This document shows, one piece after another, positions 1-30,802 of a stretch of DNA of 35,481 nucleotides. Position 1 is the first letter of the stretch, and each line of letters opens with the position of its first letter. The position numbers and the translations under genes are program-made. The notes beneath the pieces are model-generated. The model saw only the letters and a list, made by a program, of their open reading frames with translations, was not told the origin of the DNA and searched no databases. Origin of the DNA: a virus (Duplodnaviria > Heunggongvirae > Uroviricota > Caudoviricetes); the IMG/VR virus record IMGVR_UViG_3300033068_001655. The stretch is one strand, 5' to 3'.

Positions 1-11
1 GAATATATTTG

Positions 12-93
12 AGCCAGTGACAGGATTCGAACCTGCGGTGTTGGAGTTCTCCCTTACAAGGGGAGTGCAATCGACCATCTATGCAACACTGGC
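12..93 (-). tRNA. tRNA-Thr(UGU) with 12-nt variable region
   Basis: GCCAGTG/CACTGGC acceptor, CTCCC-CTTGTAA-GGGAG anticodon arm, GCAGG-TTCGAAT-CCTGT T arm; G1-C72, C2-G71, U73; CCA not encoded. Confidence 0.88.
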
Positions 94-97
94 GTAT

Positions 98-129
98 AAA
101 AAAAGACCCAAACTTATGTTCGGGTCTTT
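98..129 (-). terminator. Intrinsic terminator/attenuator upstream of tRNA-Thr
   Basis: AAAGACCCGAAC-ATAA-GTTTGGGTCTTT followed by a U run; ends 4 nt before the tRNA. Confidence 0.85.
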
Positions 130-156
130 AGAAATTTTTTATAATATAACTTTGCT

Positions 157-246
157 TTATACCATACATATCTCATTACCCGAAGTCGTGCTATTCACAC
201 AATTCGTAATCGTAATCACATTAATATTTATAGTATTTGTTTTCAT
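157..246 (-). CDS. Putative attenuator leader peptide 1 (29 aa, MKTNTININVITITNCVNSTTSGNEICMV)
   Basis: Hand-translated. ATG follows promoter motifs; 6 Thr and 6 Asn codons; contains TTCGGGT (178-184), complementary to the terminator 5' arm. Confidence 0.75.
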   Translation of the reverse strand: MKTNTININVITITNCVNSTTSGNEICMV

Positions 247-300
247 TGTATTATATATTATATTTTTATTGTCCCTTTTTGTTTTTCTTTAATTATAGTA

Positions 301-308
301 CAAATATA
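301..308 (-). promoter_or_regulatory. Bacteroidota sigma70-type -7 element (TATATTTG) upstream of leader 1
   Basis: Matches TAnnTTTG. The motif recurs upstream of genes at 2055, 2343, 13371, 13780, 15065, 16914, 22301, 22376(+), 26867, 29969 and 31205. Confidence 0.7.
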
Positions 309-328
309 CTATAAGTTTTTTAATCTAC

Positions 329-553
329 CTAATCTTTTATTATATTTTTTAATTTTTCTTCTCTCAATTCTCTAATAGTAACATCTTTTGCTATTTCAGT
401 ATTAAAGATAACATATGTTGAATCGCAATTATCACAAGCCCATTTTTCATCACTAAAAGGTGGATCAACTTCACAATACTCAATTTCATCCTTTTTACAA
501 TGTAAACAAGGTTTCACTTCATATATCTTATCTTCAACTTTAATTAGTTTCAT
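329..553 (-). CDS. Small Cys-containing hypothetical protein with C-terminal R-E-x-K-L motif
   Basis: CLHC...CDNC putative Zn ligands; ends [12 protein letters not shown]. Confidence 0.7.
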
Positions 554-567
554 ATTTTAAATTTTTG

Positions 568-650
568 TACGGGTAGTCGGACTCGAACCGACACGTCCTT
601 TCGGACACTGGCTTCTAAAACCAGCGGGTCTACCATTCCCCCATACCCGC
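568..650 (-). tRNA. tRNA-Leu(UAG)
   Basis: CTGGT-TTTAGAA-GCCAG arm, long variable arm, canonical T arm, A73. Confidence 0.95.
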
Positions 651-657
651 GTATTTG

Positions 658-740
658 TATCGAAAGTGGGACTCGAACCCACACGTTCATTTGAACACTA
701 TGTTTTGAGCATAGCACGTCTACCATTTCATCATTTCGAC
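658..740 (-). tRNA. tRNA-Leu(CAA)
   Basis: CTATG-CTCAAAA-CATAG arm, class II cloverleaf. Confidence 0.95.
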
Positions 741-746
741 ATTTTG

Positions 747-829
747 TACCGAGAGCGGGACTCGAACCCGCACGTCCTTTCGGACACTGGCTTCTTAGAC
801 CAGCGTGTCTACCATTCCACCACCTCGGC
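747..829 (-). tRNA. tRNA-Leu(AAG), A34 anticodon
   Basis: CTGGT-CTAAGAA-GCCAG arm; body nearly identical to the Leu(UAG) copy. Confidence 0.92.
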
Positions 830-837
830 TTATTTTG

Positions 838-922
838 TATCGGAGGAGGGACTCGAACCCTCACGCCCCTTCCGGGACACAGCATTTTAAGTGCTGCGTG
901 TCTACCATTCCACCACTCCGAC
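838..922 (-). tRNA. tRNA-Leu(UAA)
   Basis: CAGCA-CTTAAAA-TGCTG arm, class II cloverleaf. Confidence 0.95.
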
Positions 923-932
923 AAGTGATTTG

Positions 933-1013
933 TACCCCGTGTAGGATTCGAACCTACATTTTCAGCTTCCAATTACCCTTAACTGTTTAGAAGACAGTCG
1001 GGACTAACGGGGC
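933..1013 (-). tRNA. Rearranged tRNA-like RNA, anticodon UCU (Arg), 81 nt
   Basis: 7-bp acceptor and T arm intact; ACTGT-CTTCTAA-ACAGT arm starts 8 nt after the acceptor; D-loop-like AATTGGA lies 3' of the anticodon arm. Confidence 0.7.
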
Positions 1014-1018
1014 ATATT

Positions 1019-1474
1019 TTATTTACGACAATATGTTTCAGTTTGACTATGGCAATTCGGACACAAAATTCTAAGATTTAATAACCTATTATCCATATTA
1101 TTACCATTTATATGATCTAAGTGCATTACAATTGGTTTACTATTCCAATCAGTTAGTTCACATATTTCACATTTGTTCTCTTTTAATTTTGCAGAGAATA
1201 ATTTTTCTTTTAATCTACCATTATTTGTGTAGGTAGAATTTTCTATTAAAATTTCCTCAAGAGAACAAGTCTTACCAAAATTTCTATATCTGGTTCCACT
1301 ATTCCATCCTTGTCCTGTAAAGTGTGAGGTGTCAATTTCTAATAATTTAAAATACTTTTTTAGTGTTTTATAATTACCACCAACTGGTCTCATTTCTAAT
1401 TTTCTACAGACTTCTGCAACGGATAGTGATTCTTTTACTATCGGTTCTAATGTTTCTTTATTATACTTACTCAT
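1019..1474 (-). CDS. HNH homing endonuclease inside the Leu/Arg tRNA operon
   Basis: CEIC...HLDHINGNNMDNRLLNLRILCPNCH motif. Confidence 0.88.
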   Translation of the reverse strand: MSKYNKETLEPIVKESLSVAEVCRKLEMRPVGGNYKTLKKYFKLLEIDTSHFTGQGWNSGTRYRNFGKTCSLEEILIENSTYTNNGRLKEKLFSAKLKENKCEICELTDWNSKPIVMHLDHINGNNMDNRLLNLRILCPNCHSQTETYCRK

Positions 1475-1550
1475 AATTTATATTTATTTTAGTATATATA
1501 TTAAAACTTAAAACTCGATTTTTTCAAAAACCACCAAGTATCACTTTTTG

Positions 1551-1634
1551 TACCGAGAACGGGAATCGAACCCGTACGCCATAAAGGCACGAGATTTTAA
1601 GTCTCGCATGTACTACCTATTTCATCACCTCGGC
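1551..1634 (-). tRNA. tRNA-Leu(UAA)
   Basis: CGAGA-CTTAAAA-TCTCG arm, class II. Confidence 0.95.
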
Positions 1635-1640
1635 TTTTTG

Positions 1641-1725
1641 TACGTCTGGAGGGACTCGAACCCTCACGGTCATTCTGACCACTAGGGCTTAAACCTAGCG
1701 TGACTTCCAATTCCACCACAAACGC
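1641..1725 (-). tRNA. tRNA-Leu(UAA)
   Basis: CTAGG-TTTAAGC-CCTAG arm, class II. Confidence 0.92.
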
Positions 1726-1745
1726 ATTTTGTGACATTTTTTTTG

Positions 1746-1817
1746 TGACCCCACAGGGATTCGAACCCCGATTGAAAGCTTAGAAGGCTTTAGTCCTATC
1801 CGTTGAACGATGAGGCC
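1746..1817 (-). tRNA. tRNA-Arg(UCU)
   Basis: AAAGC-CTTCTAA-GCTTT arm, canonical cloverleaf. Confidence 0.93.
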
Positions 1818-1834
1818 AATTATTTATTTTACAT

Positions 1835-1867
1835 AAAAAAACCCGAAACTTTTACATTTCGGGTTTT
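1835..1867 (-). terminator. Intrinsic terminator/attenuator of the Arg/Leu tRNA operon
   Basis: AAAACCCGAAA-TGTAAAAG-TTTCGGGTTTT plus U run; ends 17 nt before tRNA-Arg. Confidence 0.87.
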
Positions 1868-1895
1868 GTTATATTATTTAGATACTTTCAGTTAT

Positions 1896-1997
1896 TTACA
1901 TACTAAAATTACTTGCTCTAAATATAGCAAAACCCGGTTCACGTCTTAGACATAAGACATTCAGCGTTAAGTTAATATTTAGATTAGTTGTTTTCAT
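1896..1997 (-). CDS. Putative attenuator leader peptide 2 (33 aa, MKTTNLNINLTLNVLCLRREPGFAIFRASNFSM)
   Basis: Hand-translated. 5 Leu codons then AGA-CGT; codons 21-26 carry CGGGTTTTGCTATATT (1921-1936), a 15/16 complement of 1860-1875. Confidence 0.8.
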   Translation of the reverse strand: MKTTNLNINLTLNVLCLRREPGFAIFRASNFSM

Positions 1998-2002
1998 TAT
2001 TG

Positions 2003-2014
2003 TATATATTAAAA
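2003..2014 (-). promoter_or_regulatory. Recurrent phage motif TTTTAATATATA (putative phage-specific promoter)
   Basis: Exact or near copies upstream of genes at 252, 1495, 5575, 7062(+), 17008, 19954, 28558, 30203, 31252(+) and 32835(+). Confidence 0.6.
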
Positions 2015-2054
2015 GTTTATTCTCCCTTTTTGTTATTTTGTTATTTTTATAGTA

Positions 2055-2086
2055 CAAAAGTATAAAAAGTTTTATAATGTACCAAA
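2055..2086 (-). promoter_or_regulatory. Bacteroidota-type promoter (TTTG-N20-TACTTTTG) for leader 2
   Basis: -33 TTTG at 2083-2086 and -7 TAnnTTTG at 2055-2062. Confidence 0.75.
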
Positions 2087-2087
2087 T

Positions 2088-2315
2088 TTATTTTAATTTA
2101 TTTTCAAAAAATTCTGAAAGTTCTTTTATCAACTGTTCATTATCTTTTTGTGTTTTATCTTCATCTGCACTGTCAATAGGATCATCGAACCATAATCCTT
2201 TATTATCAAATCCTTTTGTTTTTACCCAAGTGATTAAATCATTTAATCCCCAGAATACTTCTTGTGGAGTGTCTGAACCCCAAGAGTGCATAAGTGTTAA
2301 GAAAAATTTTTCCAT
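2088..2315 (-). CDS. Hypothetical protein
   Basis: 75-aa ORF with TATATTTG upstream at 2343. Confidence 0.65.
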   Translation of the reverse strand: MEKFFLTLMHSWGSDTPQEVFWGLNDLITWVKTKGFDNKGLWFDDPIDSADEDKTQKDNEQLIKELSEFFENKLK

Positions 2316-2587
2316 TTTTTTATTTTTATTTTTTTTATTCTACAAATATAAGAAATTTTTTTATATCTAGATTAAAATTGAAAAAACACGTACCATCAAG
2401 CACATGTTTTTTCATCACACTAACTTCCGTTTTAATATTAAAAAGGTTGTTGTGAATAATCCATTTCGTAATAATCCTCCTGAAAAGGGTAACCTCCAAT
2501 CCACTAGTATAATGGTTGTGTTTTCCGAATTATTGGAAATAAATTTCTTTACTATTACTATATATAAACTTTTAAAATCGTTTTTTA

Positions 2588-5554
2588 TTAAATAAGTTTA
2601 AGTATTCCTATATTATAGTGTATTTCATATTTATCTAAACCAGTACCTTGTGCATTACTAGGTCTTATTAATTCATTTCTACTTGCATCTACTAAAGAAC
2701 CTTTACTTTTTAAAGTAACTGATTCAACTGAGTCACCTGATAGTAATCCTTTTACTCTAAATTCATTACCAATGAATGTGAATTCTTGACCATATATCTT
2801 TTCTTGATCTAATGCAATTATTGATAGATTTGGTTTCTTTTCAGTATAGTAGATATTTATATCACCAAAGTCAACACCATTGTTACACTTATATAGGTAT
2901 CTATCATATAATTTACTATATCTTATTTTATCTAATCTTTTACTTTTTTTATTTTTCTTTCTAATTTCTTTTAGAAAAGGTCTTATTGTAGTAATATCAA
3001 TTATATCTTCTGATGCTATTTTTTGTTTAAAATCATCTAAAAGTTGTTTTACATTGACATAATTAGATTTTATATTAACTTTATATGGGACAGTATTAAT
3101 AGATACTAATTTAGAAAAATTAAGATTATTTATAATATGTGAATATGAAGTATCAGTTGCAATTCTATTTAATCTTATTTCTGGATGAGTACCTTCATTT
3201 TTCTCTTCAATCAAATGGTATAATACATCTTCTGAACCAATTGGATTAAAACCTGGTCTTTTAGCAACACCACCATATTTTGCTAATTTCTTCCCATTCT
3301 TACCCCATACTTTATTTAGTGCTCCTGCTATTTTTTCTTTTTTACCATTAACATAAAGTGTAAATTTATACAATGTTGTTTTACCAAATTTTTTATACCC
3401 GGATAAAAGTTGTAAAAATTGTTTATAAGTATTAGTTGCATCAATATTACCATATATTTTACCTGAATAAGAAACTAAAACTGAATTAGATTTAATTTTA
3501 GTAGAAAGTACTTTTCTTTTTAAATCTAATTCCATTTTAATTGGATCAATAAGTGAATCTCTTTTCTCTTCCAATGATTGTATTTTATCATCTATTGCTA
3601 TTTGATCACTATTATCATATAAAACACCATCATATGTAAATGTTTGGTTTGTGTAGATGCCTTCTACAAGAAGTGTTTTTTTATCTTCTATTGCATTATT
3701 AAAATTATCATAGTAATTTTGTGCAAAGGTATAATAATGAGATAGTCTTTTTTCTGCTACTTTTATATCATATGTTGTATTATCATAAGAAACATTATTG
3801 GAGTAGTATTGACCTCTTTTTAATTCAACATCTCTATTATTTATTTCTCCATTATAATAATTAGATATTCTATCTAATTCATTAGTAGCAACTTCTTTTG
3901 CGGAAGTTTTATTATCCACATTGAAGGTAGTTCCATCAAAGATGATAGGTCTATTTATATATGTATTATTTTCTACTAATGTAGTTTGATTGTCCATAGC
4001 TATTTGAAGTCCGCTAATATGATTCTGCTTTGAAGAAATTGCATTAAGTAATCCATCTTTGCTATTATATGTTAATGTATTAGAAGTTGTACCCAAAATT
4101 GTTGTACTAGTAAATATTGGCATATCATTTTCTGTAAAAGCTCCTGAAATTGAATCAACATCATAGATTGATGTATATTCATCCCAATCAGAAATTAGTT
4201 TATCTAAAGCTAACTGTTTATTAGAAACTGCTATTTGTGCATCAGAAATTGTATTATACGTACGTCCTTCAAATGAAAAATATTCACTTGCAGTATCAAT
4301 GGCATATTGAAATCTTGTAGTATAATCTTTTATATAATTTCTGGCATCATCAATTGTATTAAATGTTGCACCATTTATTGAAAAGGTTTCCTTTGCAGTG
4401 TTGATAGCATATTCAAACTTTGAATAGTAATCATCTGAATAACTTTTGAAATTGTCTAAAGCCATTCTTGCTTCTTCAATTGTATTGTAATTTCTATCTA
4501 AATATTCAAATTGTTCTCTTGATTTAGTAATTACATATTGAAAATCATTTATAGGTTGACTTAATAATTCATATTGTCGATCTATATAGTTTTGTGCATC
4601 ACTAAAATTACTAAATGACATACCATTAAAAGAAAATGCTTGTGCATTTAATAAGGAATCATCTATTGTTTTTTTAAATTCTTTAATAAACTCTTTAGAA
4701 TTATTTAAGTATTCAATATCAAGTCTTACCTCATAAAAATTACCTAATTCAAATTTATAGTCAGTATATACTGATAACTTTTTATTTTTATCATAAGTTA
4801 TACTTGCAGCAATTGAAAATGGACTAAACTTATTTTGATACTTTGCTTTTAAATAATATTCTTGTGTTTGTTGATTAGGTTTAATTGGTGGTATTTTATC
4901 ACTGAAGTCAACACCATAAGGAGCCATTGCACCAAATGAAATGTTATTGTTTCCGTTTTGATTTTCATAATTAAATGATATTAAATCACTTCTTCTTGTT
5001 GTATATTGTTTAAGTACCTTATTTCTTCCATAAGTCTTTGCAGGAAATCTGTTTAATCTAAAATTAAAACCTACTGAGTATTTATCTTTGATTTTAATAT
5101 CATGTAGATATTTATCTTGATTAATACTCGGATTTTTACTTATACTTAAATTTGGTTTACCATCATAGTGAGTTAAGTCATCAATAAGTCCTTGATTGGT
5201 CTTATTAATACCCAATACTTCACCATATTCTATTTTAGAACAATTAATAATTAAATCACTATATGGAGTATAGTAATCTTTAGTGCTTATTTCAGGTGAG
5301 TAATGAAATGCAGTTTTATAACCTGAATTAGAATAGTTTGTATCATTTAATGTTTTAATATGATCATTTAATGTAGATGATATTACATCTAACTTATTTA
5401 ATACTTCAACTGGTAGGTTGACTTGTTTAGAATTTATAATTTTAGTTGAAACTCTATTTTTAAATGACTCTAGTTGTGTTTTGTTAAATTCTGATAAATT
5501 TAAAGCTCTTTCATGATCAATATTTATACCTTTGATAAAATCGTTTATATTCAC
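2588..5554 (-). CDS. Large repeat-containing protein with C-terminal MBG-like domain (possible virion/adhesion protein)
   Basis: GTG start; internal F-x-x-x-G-x-x-(F/Y)-x-T-x-x-(D/E)-A repeats; C-terminal KIYGQE...GLLSGDSVESVTL...NAQGTGLDKYEIHYNIGILKL resembles MBG(YG) adhesin domains. Confidence 0.6.
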   Translation of the reverse strand: MNINDFIKGINIDHERALNLSEFNKTQLESFKNRVSTKIINSKQVNLPVEVLNKLDVISSTLNDHIKTLNDTNYSNSGYKTAFHYSPEISTKDYYTPYSDLIINCSKIEYGEVLGINKTNQGLIDDLTHYDGKPNLSISKNPSINQDKYLHDIKIKDKYSVGFNFRLNRFPAKTYGRNKVLKQYTTRRSDLISFNYENQNGNNNISFGAMAPYGVDFSDKIPPIKPNQQTQEYYLKAKYQNKFSPFSIAASITYDKNKKLSVYTDYKFELGNFYEVRLDIEYLNNSKEFIKEFKKTIDDSLLNAQAFSFNGMSFSNFSDAQNYIDRQYELLSQPINDFQYVITKSREQFEYLDRNYNTIEEARMALDNFKSYSDDYYSKFEYAINTAKETFSINGATFNTIDDARNYIKDYTTRFQYAIDTASEYFSFEGRTYNTISDAQIAVSNKQLALDKLISDWDEYTSIYDVDSISGAFTENDMPIFTSTTILGTTSNTLTYNSKDGLLNAISSKQNHISGLQIAMDNQTTLVENNTYINRPIIFDGTTFNVDNKTSAKEVATNELDRISNYYNGEINNRDVELKRGQYYSNNVSYDNTTYDIKVAEKRLSHYYTFAQNYYDNFNNAIEDKKTLLVEGIYTNQTFTYDGVLYDNSDQIAIDDKIQSLEEKRDSLIDPIKMELDLKRKVLSTKIKSNSVLVSYSGKIYGNIDATNTYKQFLQLLSGYKKFGKTTLYKFTLYVNGKKEKIAGALNKVWGKNGKKLAKYGGVAKRPGFNPIGSEDVLYHLIEEKNEGTHPEIRLNRIATDTSYSHIINNLNFSKLVSINTVPYKVNIKSNYVNVKQLLDDFKQKIASEDIIDITTIRPFLKEIRKKNKKSKRLDKIRYSKLYDRYLYKCNNGVDFGDINIYYTEKKPNLSIIALDQEKIYGQEFTFIGNEFRVKGLLSGDSVESVTLKSKGSLVDASRNELIRPSNAQGTGLDKYEIHYNIGILKLI

Positions 5555-11836: not shown

Positions 11837-12288
11837 AAGTATTTTGTTATATCTTCTAAATTTTTAGGACATTCAGTATCGTGATACCACCATACTGCTT
11901 TTGTTTGTAGTCCTTTATAACACTCCATATGGAGCATTGTCATTGGTTTTCCTTTATCTTTTTTTAATACCGTTTTTACTCTACCTATTTCTTGTCCGGC
12001 TTTTACAGTTCTACCTGGTTTTATCTTAGTTAAGACTTCACCGTATAAAAATGTTTTTTGTATTTCTGGATGATAAATCATTACTGCTTGAGTATCGTTC
12101 CACCAAGGAGATTCACTAAATCCAGTGAACTCTATTACACTTGTAACTACACCGTCATACATTGAATAAACTTCTTCATTTTCTTGACAGAATAGATCAA
12201 CTCCAGTATGGTGGTCGTGTTTACGTTTAGCTCCAAAATAATTTTCAGAGTCTAAACTTGGTAAAGTATAATTACTAATTGGCCACAT
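11833..12288 (-). CDS. M23 family peptidase
   Basis: HTGVDL (HxxxD) and MLHME (HxE/HxH-like) motifs. Confidence 0.8.
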   Translation of the reverse strand: MWPISNYTLPSLDSENYFGAKRKHDHHTGVDLFCQENEEVYSMYDGVVTSVIEFTGFSESPWWNDTQAVMIYHPEIQKTFLYGEVLTKIKPGRTVKAGQEIGRVKTVLKKDKGKPMTMLHMECYKGLQTKAVWWYHDTECPKNLEDITKYL

Positions 12289-13289
12289 TATTCTGCGGTA
12301 TAAGTTACGTTAGTTCTTTCTTCTAATCTTTCACCAATTGGCATAAGATTGTTTGAATAAACTTTATCGATAAATGTTTTCATTAAATCTCTGTGTTCAG
12401 GAACTATTCCAGTTCTAATACCATCATAATTACTAAATTTTTGTGCAGGCACCCATTTAACCTCAGCAATATCATCAGATGCTTTTGCAAAGCCGTGGTG
12501 TCTTTCTGCTAAGAATAATGTAGTCATAATTCCAGAGTCTTCACCTTTATATCTCCAATCGTTTACTTTTTGAGAAGTAATATAAGTTAAGTTTCTGTTT
12601 ACTACTAAGTTACCACCAGTTTCTTCATTAAGTTCTCTTAATGCAGCGGCTTCAAAAGAAGAGTCAGAAGTATCAACGAAACCACCGACAAATCTAAATA
12701 ATTTCTCGTTAGGTTTTCTACCTAAAAGGATATTACCTTCACCATCGTGAGCAACAATGTCAACAGTAGGGAAAGTTGTAGGTCTATGGTTAAAAGAAGA
12801 ATAAATAACACCCGCTCTAAAATCATCAGAGTCTAAGGTTTCTTTGGCAACTTCTTCACGGATATTTGTACCGTTATAAGTAACACTTTCTTCTAATTCA
12901 ATAACTGAGTATTTACCAGAGTAGTAAGGAATAAAAGAGTCTCTACTTCCATAGATTACAGTTTTTTTCTCACCGAATGGAATAGGAATAATAGTGTCAA
13001 CATCTTGTGACCATTTTTCGTTATATCTTTGATCTTGAATAGGTAAGATCATAACAGAAGGGAATTCTTTTTGAATCATTGCTTTACGAGAAGCAAAATC
13101 TAGTGGATTTTTACGAGTGTTTTGAACTCTTGATACACCTAAAAGTATGATTACTTTTTTATGATTATCTAATACATAATTGATTAGTGAACGGTGACCA
13201 TCGTGTAGTTTGTTTACTTGGAAGCGACCAATAACAACTGCCACCTCTGCTTCTTTTTGAATTTCTAATTCATTTACTTTTATATTCAT
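12288..13289 (-). CDS. nadM: Bifunctional NMN adenylyltransferase / ADP-ribose pyrophosphatase (NadM-Nudix)
   Basis: IGRFQ...HDGH nucleotidyltransferase motif, NPLDF, and Nudix box GGFVD...AAALRELNEETG. Confidence 0.93.
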   Translation of the reverse strand: MNIKVNELEIQKEAEVAVVIGRFQVNKLHDGHRSLINYVLDNHKKVIILLGVSRVQNTRKNPLDFASRKAMIQKEFPSVMILPIQDQRYNEKWSQDVDTIIPIPFGEKKTVIYGSRDSFIPYYSGKYSVIELEESVTYNGTNIREEVAKETLDSDDFRAGVIYSSFNHRPTTFPTVDIVAHDGEGNILLGRKPNEKLFRFVGGFVDTSDSSFEAAALRELNEETGGNLVVNRNLTYITSQKVNDWRYKGEDSGIMTTLFLAERHHGFAKASDDIAEVKWVPAQKFSNYDGIRTGIVPEHRDLMKTFIDKVYSNNLMPIGERLEERTNVTYTAE

Positions 13290-13427
13290 AATATTTTTAT
13301 TTAACTATTTTCCAAAGAAAACCTTTATACTCTGTTTTATTTCTATTTCAAAAGTTTTTATTTTATAGTACAAAGATACGAAGAATTTTAGTATCAATTA
13401 ATATTATATTATATTTTTATCAAATAG

Positions 13428-30099: not shown

Positions 30100-30113
30100 A
30101 TATATTTTCTTAG

Positions 30114-30184
30114 TAGCGTACTGTGGATTCGAACCACCCCGTAGACCTTATGAGAGTCCCATGCAACCTTTACACTTTAACGCG
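30114..30184 (-). tRNA. Second initiator-like tRNA-Met(CAU), degenerate acceptor
   Basis: C1:U72; GGACT-CTCATAA-GGTCT arm; mismatches at 6:67 and 7:66. Confidence 0.72.
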
Positions 30185-30229
30185 ATATGTGTTTTATAGT
30201 TGTATATATTAAAAAGTTTATCTCTCTTT

Positions 30230-30802
30230 TCAATTTTTTTCAACTTTTTTCATTATTTTTTTAATTTCTTCTTTAGATTTCTCTAAATCAACATTTTCTA
30301 TTACAAAATCTGCTAATTTAGCTTTATCTTCATCAGACCATTGACTTCTTATTCTTTTAAGAACTTCTTCCTTAGTAGTGTTATCTCTACTAATAACTCT
30401 TTCAACTCTTACATCTTCTGGTGCAGTAACTAAAATTGTATAATCACAATCTTTATAAGCACCACTTTCAAATAAAATTGCCGCTTCTTTAACTACAATG
30501 TCATATTGTTTTGACCAGTTGATAAAGTGTTGTCTTACTTTTGGATGAATAATCTCGTTTAACTTTTTAAGATTACTCTCATTTCCGAATACAAAAGTAG
30601 CTAACTTTTTTCTATCTACCAAATTATTTTCGATAATTTCTTCACCAAAAGTTATTCTTAATTCATTTACTACTTTTGGTGTATCAAGTAATTTCTTAGC
30701 TTCATCATCAGCAATATAAATAGGATAACCCAAAGATTCAATATACTTTGTGATTGTTGTCTTACCAGACCCAATACCACCAGTTATACCTACTATTTTC
30801 AT
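30230..30802 (-). CDS. coaE: Dephospho-CoA kinase
   Basis: VGITGGIGSGKTT, IADDEAK, VDRKKLA, IIHPKV, EAAILFE and ADFVIEN motifs. Confidence 0.95.
   Translation of the reverse strand: MKIVGITGGIGSGKTTITKYIESLGYPIYIADDEAKKLLDTPKVVNELRITFGEEIIENNLVDRKKLATFVFGNESNLKKLNEIIHPKVRQHFINWSKQYDIVVKEAAILFESGAYKDCDYTILVTAPEDVRVERVISRDNTTKEEVLKRIRSQWSDEDKAKLADFVIENVDLEKSKEEIKKIMKKVEKN

Follow-up and report, generated by a model that had tools for sequence, protein, structure and literature searches.

At the left end of the window, by which we mean the whole 35,481-nucleotide stretch of viral DNA analysed here (Caudoviricetes; IMG/VR record IMGVR_UViG_3300033068_001655), a short ORF, a predicted intrinsic terminator and a tRNA gene follow one another on the minus strand, and are together referred to as unit 1. 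The leader ORF (157..246) starts with an ATG at 246..244, comprises 29 codons (MKTNTININVITITNCVNSTTSGNEICMV) and ends with a stop codon at 159..157. Codons 3-21 specify Thr, Asn, Ile, Val and Cys along with one Ser, and reading of the minus strand confirmed the six Thr codons (ACA, ACT, ACG, ACG, ACG and ACT) that had been counted in an earlier, sequence-only reading of this DNA. Codons 11-17 (ITITNCV; 197..216) form region 1, which is the 5' half of a default 1:2 hairpin in the MFE and centroid structures. Region 2 (175..191) holds TTCGGGT (184..178), a putative antiterminator that can pair either with region 1 or with the 5' arm of the terminator. The terminator was called as a hairpin of 12 pairs (129..118 with 113..102), 5 of them G-C, with the loop AUAA and seven T residues behind it. 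Its 5' arm, region 3 (118..129), carries ACCCGAA at 125..119, and TTCGGGT is the exact reverse complement of this segment, as had been noted before. Its 3' arm (113..102) overlaps the seven-T tract (104..98), the two making up region 4 (98..113). The first gene past the terminator is tRNA-Thr(UGU) at 11..93 (ARAGORN; Rfam RF00005, 54.3 bits), again in agreement with the earlier reading, and the gap between the T tract and the 5' end of this gene is 4 nt. Since such a gap leaves no room for a promoter of the tRNA's own, the 10-15 conserved tRNA genes that follow can be expressed only by read-through of the terminator. The tRNA-Thr(UGU) gene itself measures 83 nt, and some 12-13 nt of this form an unpaired variable region, an uncommon feature in class I tRNAs, to which tRNA-Thr belongs; a homologous gene of 81 nt is the last one in the operon of the relatives, but the first in the lineage of the window.

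The window has a G+C content of 28.7%, and all 18 tRNA genes called in it by ARAGORN lie on the minus strand. Phage-like proteins encoded in it are an HNH endonuclease, a helicase, a methyltransferase-like protein and a nicotinamide phosphoribosyltransferase, the last of which has its best relatives in the uncultured phages LR756504.1 (636 kb; 57% identity) and LR756502.1 (642 kb; 50% identity). Both phages belong to the Mahaphage clade, the largest members of which are predicted to infect Bacteroidetes (PMC7162821). A Megablast search with positions 1-3000 of the window against a phage collection gave a sole match, with Bacillus phage Deep Blue over 85 nt of tRNA-Leu, and the exact 32-nt terminator pattern of unit 1 had zero matches in IMG/VR. 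Relatives were reached through a neighbouring 74-aa ORF and through motif patterns. This ORF (329-553, minus strand) lies between a Leu tRNA block and unit 1, encodes a zinc-ribbon-like protein with two CxxC pairs and without a PHROG match, and shows 71-84% identity in IMG/VR relatives. The HNH homing-endonuclease gene (1019-1474, minus strand; phrog_10822, E = 4e-51) sits within the Arg/Leu tRNA operon, and the presence and position of HNH-type inserts vary among relatives (L003, L004). Between this gene and tRNA-Leu(UAA) lies a tRNA-like sequence (933-1014, minus strand) that scored 25 bits, below threshold, on the Rfam tRNA-Sec model and was not called by ARAGORN even at relaxed settings.

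From the codons of the leader it had been predicted that the operon continuing past position 1 would contain tRNAs for Asn, Ile, Val, Cys and Ser. The content of this flank was checked in two Logan contigs, L005 and L004, which encode a protein identical to the 74-aa ORF (553..329); bases 1-606 of L005 are 100% identical to positions 606-1 of the window, and bases 1086-1827 of L004 are identical to positions 742-1. The first two bases of tRNA-Asn(GUU) are at 1..2 of the window, where the gene runs off the edge (605-679 of L005). Past this gene the contigs carry a second, Asn-like tRNA (Rfam 42.5 bits; anticodon loop GUU, read by eye), tRNA-Ile(GAU) and the first 34 nt of another tRNA. The full operon could be read in a 92%-identical relative (L029), where its order is Thr, Asn, Ile, Asn, Asn, Ile, Val, Val, Val, Ile, Val, Cys, Thr, Cys and Thr. 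A search of IMG/VR and metagenome contigs with a degenerate back-translation of the leader core yielded 24 distinct variants of unit 1, and every variant with enough downstream DNA precedes a block of Asn, Ile, Val, Cys and Thr tRNAs. The prediction thus held for Asn and Ile in contigs identical to the window and for Val and Cys in L029 and the variants, but was weak for Ser, as tRNA-Ser(CGA) occurs downstream only in the L003/L026 lineage. In all 24 variants the leader ATG is invariant and the frame is kept through region 2 despite indels in the tail, and the position of the stop codon is conserved.

The leader matches its operon far beyond what the composition of the phage would give. Seventeen of the 19 codons from 4 to 22 specify Cys, Ile, Asn, Thr or Val, as compared to a frequency of 0.29 for these five amino acids in the long ORFs of the window (binomial p = 6.6e-8), and among the 103 ATG frames of 22-45 codons in the window the unit-1 leader was the most extreme for its own amino-acid set. 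The leader is also rich in codons that are rare in the genes of the phage itself: it uses ACG three times (4% of Thr codons there), GTG twice (4% of Val codons), and AGC and TCG, each of which accounts for 2% of Ser codons. This choice could be explained by the needs of a sensitive sensor and by the G-C pairs that regions 1 and 2 require. Codons 6 (ATA) and 19 (AGC) are not read by the listed tRNAs of the operon under standard wobble rules. A part of the Thr, Asn and Ile content (MKT-N/T-x-I-N-I-N) cannot be credited to this operon in particular, as it belongs to an N-terminal motif that recurs in several leader classes; the pattern M-K/R-T-(T/N/I)-x-(I/L/N)-N-I-N is found in most leaders, including those of the window that start at 246, 1996 and 29897 on the minus strand and those of relatives, whatever the content of the operon. 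The likeness is exemplified by ININVITITNCV and LNINLTLNVLCL. Because of this common N-terminus, the leader classes look like diverged paralogues.

Upstream of the leader, a promoter-like motif (TATATTTGTACT) is present at 297..308 on the minus strand, in which a TAnnTTTG box is followed by a conserved TACT. We take TAnnTTTG to be the -7 box of Bacteroidota sigma-A promoters, and the motif is therefore predicted to be of Bacteroidota type, which agrees with the host phylum predicted for the clade. Of the pattern TANNTTTGYACT (TAnnTTTG followed by YACT), 5 matches were counted in the window where 0.43 would be expected. Four of them are on the minus strand, three of which sit 50-80 nt upstream of the three leader ATGs, and the motif is conserved in an alignment of 23 sequences (A1), so that 297..308 is a putative promoter of unit 1. 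The fourth minus-strand copy (TATCTTTGTACT; 13367-13378) precedes a 333-aa ORF (13289..12288) by about 78 nt; thus, the motif is not restricted to tRNA units. A generic sigma-70 promoter scan gave 9 hits, no more than the 9.1 expected from shuffled sequences, and no sigma-70 promoter is therefore claimed. Between the promoter-like motif and the leader lies a conserved 28-nt motif of the 5'UTR (252..279, minus strand; AAAAGRGASAATAAA, 4 nt, TAATATATA) that is separated from the ATG by 5 nt, and a Shine-Dalgarno sequence is absent from unit 1. The 28-nt motif is almost invariant in alignment A1, and within the window units 1 and 2 have it in common; a pattern search with it recovered further leader classes in IMG/VR. 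It could be a translation initiation region, a phage promoter or a processing site. A diverged third copy (AAAAGAGAGATAAAC...TAATATATA; 30203-30230, minus strand) lies directly before a tRNA-like sequence (approximately 30187..30110, minus strand) that has a CAU anticodon loop and is without an ARAGORN call, with no leader ORF between this copy and the tRNA-like sequence. The motif may therefore be a promoter or processing signal that lies outside the leader mRNA, and as a promoter it would make this mRNA nearly leaderless.

The 167-nt leader RNA of unit 1 is unusually well folded (z = -4.8; 0 of 200 shuffled sequences folded as well). In both the MFE and the centroid structure codons 11-17 (216..197) pair with codons 19-24 (191..175) and the terminator is formed. 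This default 1:2 hairpin sequesters TTCGGGT and had no place in the sequence-only reading. A Watson-Crick match of at least 7 nt between the terminator 5' arm and the ORF arose in 0.75% of dinucleotide shuffles of the ORF (p = 0.0075). We folded the nascent RNA, taken as a transcript ending before the 3' arm of the terminator, with a ribosome footprint of 30 nt. The probability of 2:3 pairing was 0.94-0.95 with the A site at codons 1-16, 0 at codons 18-28, and 0.74 without a ribosome. It had been proposed that a ribosome stalled at about codons 3-16 leaves TTCGGGT free while one at codons 21-23 masks it, and the constrained folding agrees with this. In the full-length RNA, however, the terminator was favoured over the antiterminator, by 10.3 kcal/mol when the RNA was free of ribosomes and by 3-6 kcal/mol when a ribosome masked region 1; these forced-structure energies are meaningful only for positions where the ribosome does not mask the forced 2:3 pairs, that is, before codon 18. 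Since the 7-bp antiterminator loses at equilibrium in the full-length RNA, the switch would have to be kinetic, as in classical attenuators. Thus, a trp-type kinetic switch would be consistent with these folds, but is not proven by them.

The helices were compared over 23 unit-1 sequences. The terminator helix was paired at 97.1% and includes one compensatory change of a G-C to an A-U pair in 9 sequences, while the inner 10-pair helix of 1:2 was paired at 97.8%, with one-sided changes only. The 7-pair 2:3 helix was paired at 96.9%; five of its pairs never vary, and it is 6 bp long in the L002 lineage. As the 2:3 pairs are nearly invariant within unit 1, support from covariation has to come from the other leader classes. 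A segment of 6-9 nt complementary to the terminator 5' arm was found at codons 20-26 in 9 of the 11 units tested and also in the His/Phe unit of LR756504.1, with shuffle p values from <0.0005 to 0.04 in the complement-bearing units (exact Watson-Crick match or duplex energy). The complement varies along with the terminator sequence in most units, as is seen in two versions of unit 2, where the pairs of segment and terminator are CGGGTTTTG/CAAAACCCG and TGGGTTTTG/CAAAACCCA, and similarly in the Lys/Phe/His class (AAGTTCGG/CCGAACTT and GAACTTGG/CCAAGTTC); the corresponding pair of LR756504.1 is AGACTTGG/CCAAGTCT. The exceptions are unit 3 of the window (p = 0.36-0.42) and a Ser/Lys/Arg unit, L017 (p = 0.07-0.31), neither of which has a complement to its terminator arm that is significant against shuffles. 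In the MFE structures of 8 units from six leader classes, region 2 was at least partly paired with upstream regulatory codons and the terminator was formed.

Unit 1 is one of at least 13 such units in the window, in IMG/VR and metagenome contigs and in LR756504.1, in each of which the leader mirrors its own tRNA block. Two more are present in the window, one with a leader MKTTNLNINLTLNVLCLRRE... before tRNA-Arg(UCU) and six Leu tRNAs, and the other with a leader MTTITNITIAIEAIGGYEAGY... before Glu, Tyr, Gly and Ala tRNAs. Relatives carry a leader rich in Phe, Lys, His, Ser and Trp before Lys, Trp, Phe and His tRNAs, leaders rich in Ser and Arg before tRNA-Arg(ACG) and Ser tRNAs, a leader with MPQPMQDQD before Gln, Pro and Asp tRNAs, and, recovered with the 5'UTR motif, a leader rich in Ala, Asn and Gly before Ala and Gly tRNAs. 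In an ORF-agnostic search, which sought terminators directly before tRNAs and then looked further upstream, each of these tRNAs turned out to have a small ORF ahead of it, at the heads of Leu/Arg, Glu/Tyr/Gly/Ala, Lys/Trp/Phe/His, Arg/Ser and Gln/Pro/Asp blocks.

The distant phage LR756504.1, the 636-kb genome of which is complete, has 45 tRNAs in clusters, and at least 6 of the cluster heads carry the same device (L050-L056; within 132400-137000, 221500-222900, 308000-310200 and 398500-403100). Here the amino acids are split over the blocks in a different way, and the leaders follow the split: MTTIIRNMNNNINRTRTT precedes Thr, Asn, Thr and Arg tRNAs, MKTIAMIIRMRIIRPK precedes Arg, Ile and Met, ...AIVEIAVIGGAEEGV precedes Glu, Ala, Ile, Val and Gly, ...KQDKQYQPQYD precedes Asp, Tyr, Gln and Lys, ...FWHFHFK precedes His and Phe, and ...IIKKKKR, with its run KKKK, precedes three Lys tRNAs. 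Such natural variation strengthens the case, in that a tRNA species which elsewhere belongs to another block has its codons in the leader of that block. Over the 13 units the true pairing of leaders and operons scored 6.88, as compared to a mean of 2.31 and a maximum of 5.38 in 200,000 random pairings (p < 5e-6), and within each lineage the true pairing was the unique best of all permutations (5040 and 720, respectively).

We consider it quite likely that unit 1 is a ribosome-mediated, leader-peptide type of transcription attenuator that gates a phage tRNA operon, with stalling of the ribosome leading to read-through. The case for attenuation is strong because there is no room for a promoter behind the terminator, the codons of the leader amount to a census of the block, and this census tracks the block from unit to unit. 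We infer that the ORF is translated, that the terminator is active in the host and that the switch works in this direction. Transcription would start at the host-type promoter, with a predicted start site some 55 nt ahead of the ATG, and the Thr, Asn, Ile, Val and Cys tRNAs encoded downstream would read leader codons 3-21. When decoding is fast, the ribosome would reach the stop codon, regions 1 and 2 would pair, the 3:4 hairpin would form, and RNA polymerase would terminate at the U tract. If too little of a cognate charged tRNA is available, the ribosome would stall in or just before region 1 and leave UUCGGGU free; this segment could then pair with ACCCGAA before region 4 is made, no terminator would form, and the tRNA block would be transcribed and processed. 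The new tRNAs would in turn make the leader faster to decode, which would complete a feedback loop, the circuit thus acting as a homeostat of the tRNA pool. As a leader of this type senses charged tRNA, amino-acid starvation would also trigger it, without benefit to the phage.

Three other explanations were weighed against attenuation. The one that survives best, though we regard it as unlikely, accepts the ORF as a translated sensor of decoding speed and gives it an output other than the 2:3 helix, such as polymerase pausing, access of Rho, or the processing by nucleases and the stability of the tRNA precursor. The very strong match of codons to tRNAs, set beside a 2:3 helix that is short and loses at equilibrium, would fit such an output, as would unit 3 of the window, where a significant complement to the terminator arm is lacking. 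Against it stand the strong intrinsic terminator predicted directly before the first tRNA in every unit, the complement to the 5' arm that recurs at the same position of the ORF and tracks the terminator sequence in most classes, and the default 1:2 pairing in 8 of 8 units folded, from six leader classes.

It is less probable still that the hairpin is an ordinary constitutive, partly leaky terminator of the unit upstream and the ORF a chance frame, or one for a peptide unrelated to tRNA supply. In favour of this explanation are the high frequency of Asn, Ile, Thr and Lys residues at a G+C content of 29%, the abundance of short ORFs (as the 103 frames of 22-45 codons show) and the fact that the terminator always wins at equilibrium. 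However, a chance frame would hardly rank first among those 103 in its bias to its own amino-acid set while using codons that are rare in the phage. Nor does this explanation account for 13 units from two distant phage lineages that each match their own operon, for leaders that change with operon content, or for an ATG, frame and stop position that are conserved despite indels in the tail.

An untranslated RNA switch, either with T-box-like specifier triplets that pair with anticodons or with a protein that binds the 5'UTR motif, is the least probable of all, for even though this motif is conserved at the nucleotide level, a 36-nt core is invariant even at synonymous sites and the third copy of the motif stands directly before a tRNA-like sequence without an ORF, nineteen specifier triplets for five tRNA species would be without precedent, every leader class has an ATG frame that stops between region 2 and the terminator while sharing little nucleotide sequence with the others, and no Rfam family matched at E <= 1 apart from weak, terminator-driven hits. 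In detail, no T-box was matched in positions 1-2200 of the window at this threshold and no leader family over 98-246, where the two matches, SdsR_RyeB (24 bits) and ncr1241 (22 bits), were both below threshold and driven by the terminator.

Among known systems, attenuation as proposed for unit 1 comes closest to the multivalent attenuators of enterobacteria, where the thrL leader carries Thr and Ile codons and ilvL, the leader of ilvGMEDA, carries Ile, Val and Leu codons. As in these, a short leader is rich in the codons of several amino acids, helices 1:2, 2:3 and 3:4 can be drawn, the first regulated gene is immediately preceded by an intrinsic terminator, the regulatory codons are in or before region 1, and termination is the default. 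Unlike them, unit 1 would regulate tRNA genes in a phage and not biosynthetic enzymes, so that the product fed back is the tRNA itself rather than an amino acid, and it has a Bacteroidota-type promoter motif and no Shine-Dalgarno sequence. The Rfam model Thr_leader (RF00506) did not match unit 1 and gave only 29 bits for unit 2 against a gathering score of 55. In the pheM leader of pheST, the gene for phenylalanyl-tRNA synthetase is controlled by attenuation at Phe codons; there too, a component of the translation apparatus that serves the leader's own codons is governed by attenuation, but the target is a synthetase for a single amino acid in a cellular genome, whereas the phage target is 10-15 tRNA genes for five amino acids. 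T-box riboswitches are similar in sensing the state of a specific tRNA pool and in placing an antiterminator/terminator switch upstream of translation-related genes. They bind uncharged tRNA directly, need no translation, rely on one specifier codon together with the conserved T-box sequence, and occur mainly in Firmicutes, in contrast to the phage element, which is an ORF. The closest setting is that of the tRNA clusters of huge phages (PMC7162821), which belong to the same genome clade and form large tRNA arrays, and LR756504.1, a 636-kb genome from that study, itself carries the units. That paper gives tRNA counts and is silent on their control, the stem 'attenuat' occurring 0 times in its text (PMC7162821), and full-text literature searches for leader-peptide attenuation of tRNA genes found no description. 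Thus, the mechanism is a known one, of the trp/ilv type, and tRNA genes as its target appear to be new.

Beyond unit 1, it seems likely that huge phages of Bacteroidota-type hosts, and possibly others, run a modular homeostat of the tRNA pool, in which each tRNA block stands behind a leader attenuator of its own codons and is induced only when these codons are decoded slowly. Possible causes of such a slowdown are the AT-rich codon demand of the phage, host shut-off, and the cleavage of particular tRNAs by anticodon nucleases of the host; if nucleases are the cause, the units would also serve as counter-defence sensors. If the modular homeostat is real, it would be the first known ribosome-mediated attenuation of tRNA genes. 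Its leaders would then provide compact, orthogonal and codon-specific sensors of translation speed for synthetic biology, and would allow the codons that a phage monitors to be read out from sequence alone, giving a handle on tRNA limitation in the host or on tRNA-directed defence. The tRNA arrays of these phages would, in that case, be modules regulated by demand that sense decoding speed, and not simply constitutive patches for codon usage.
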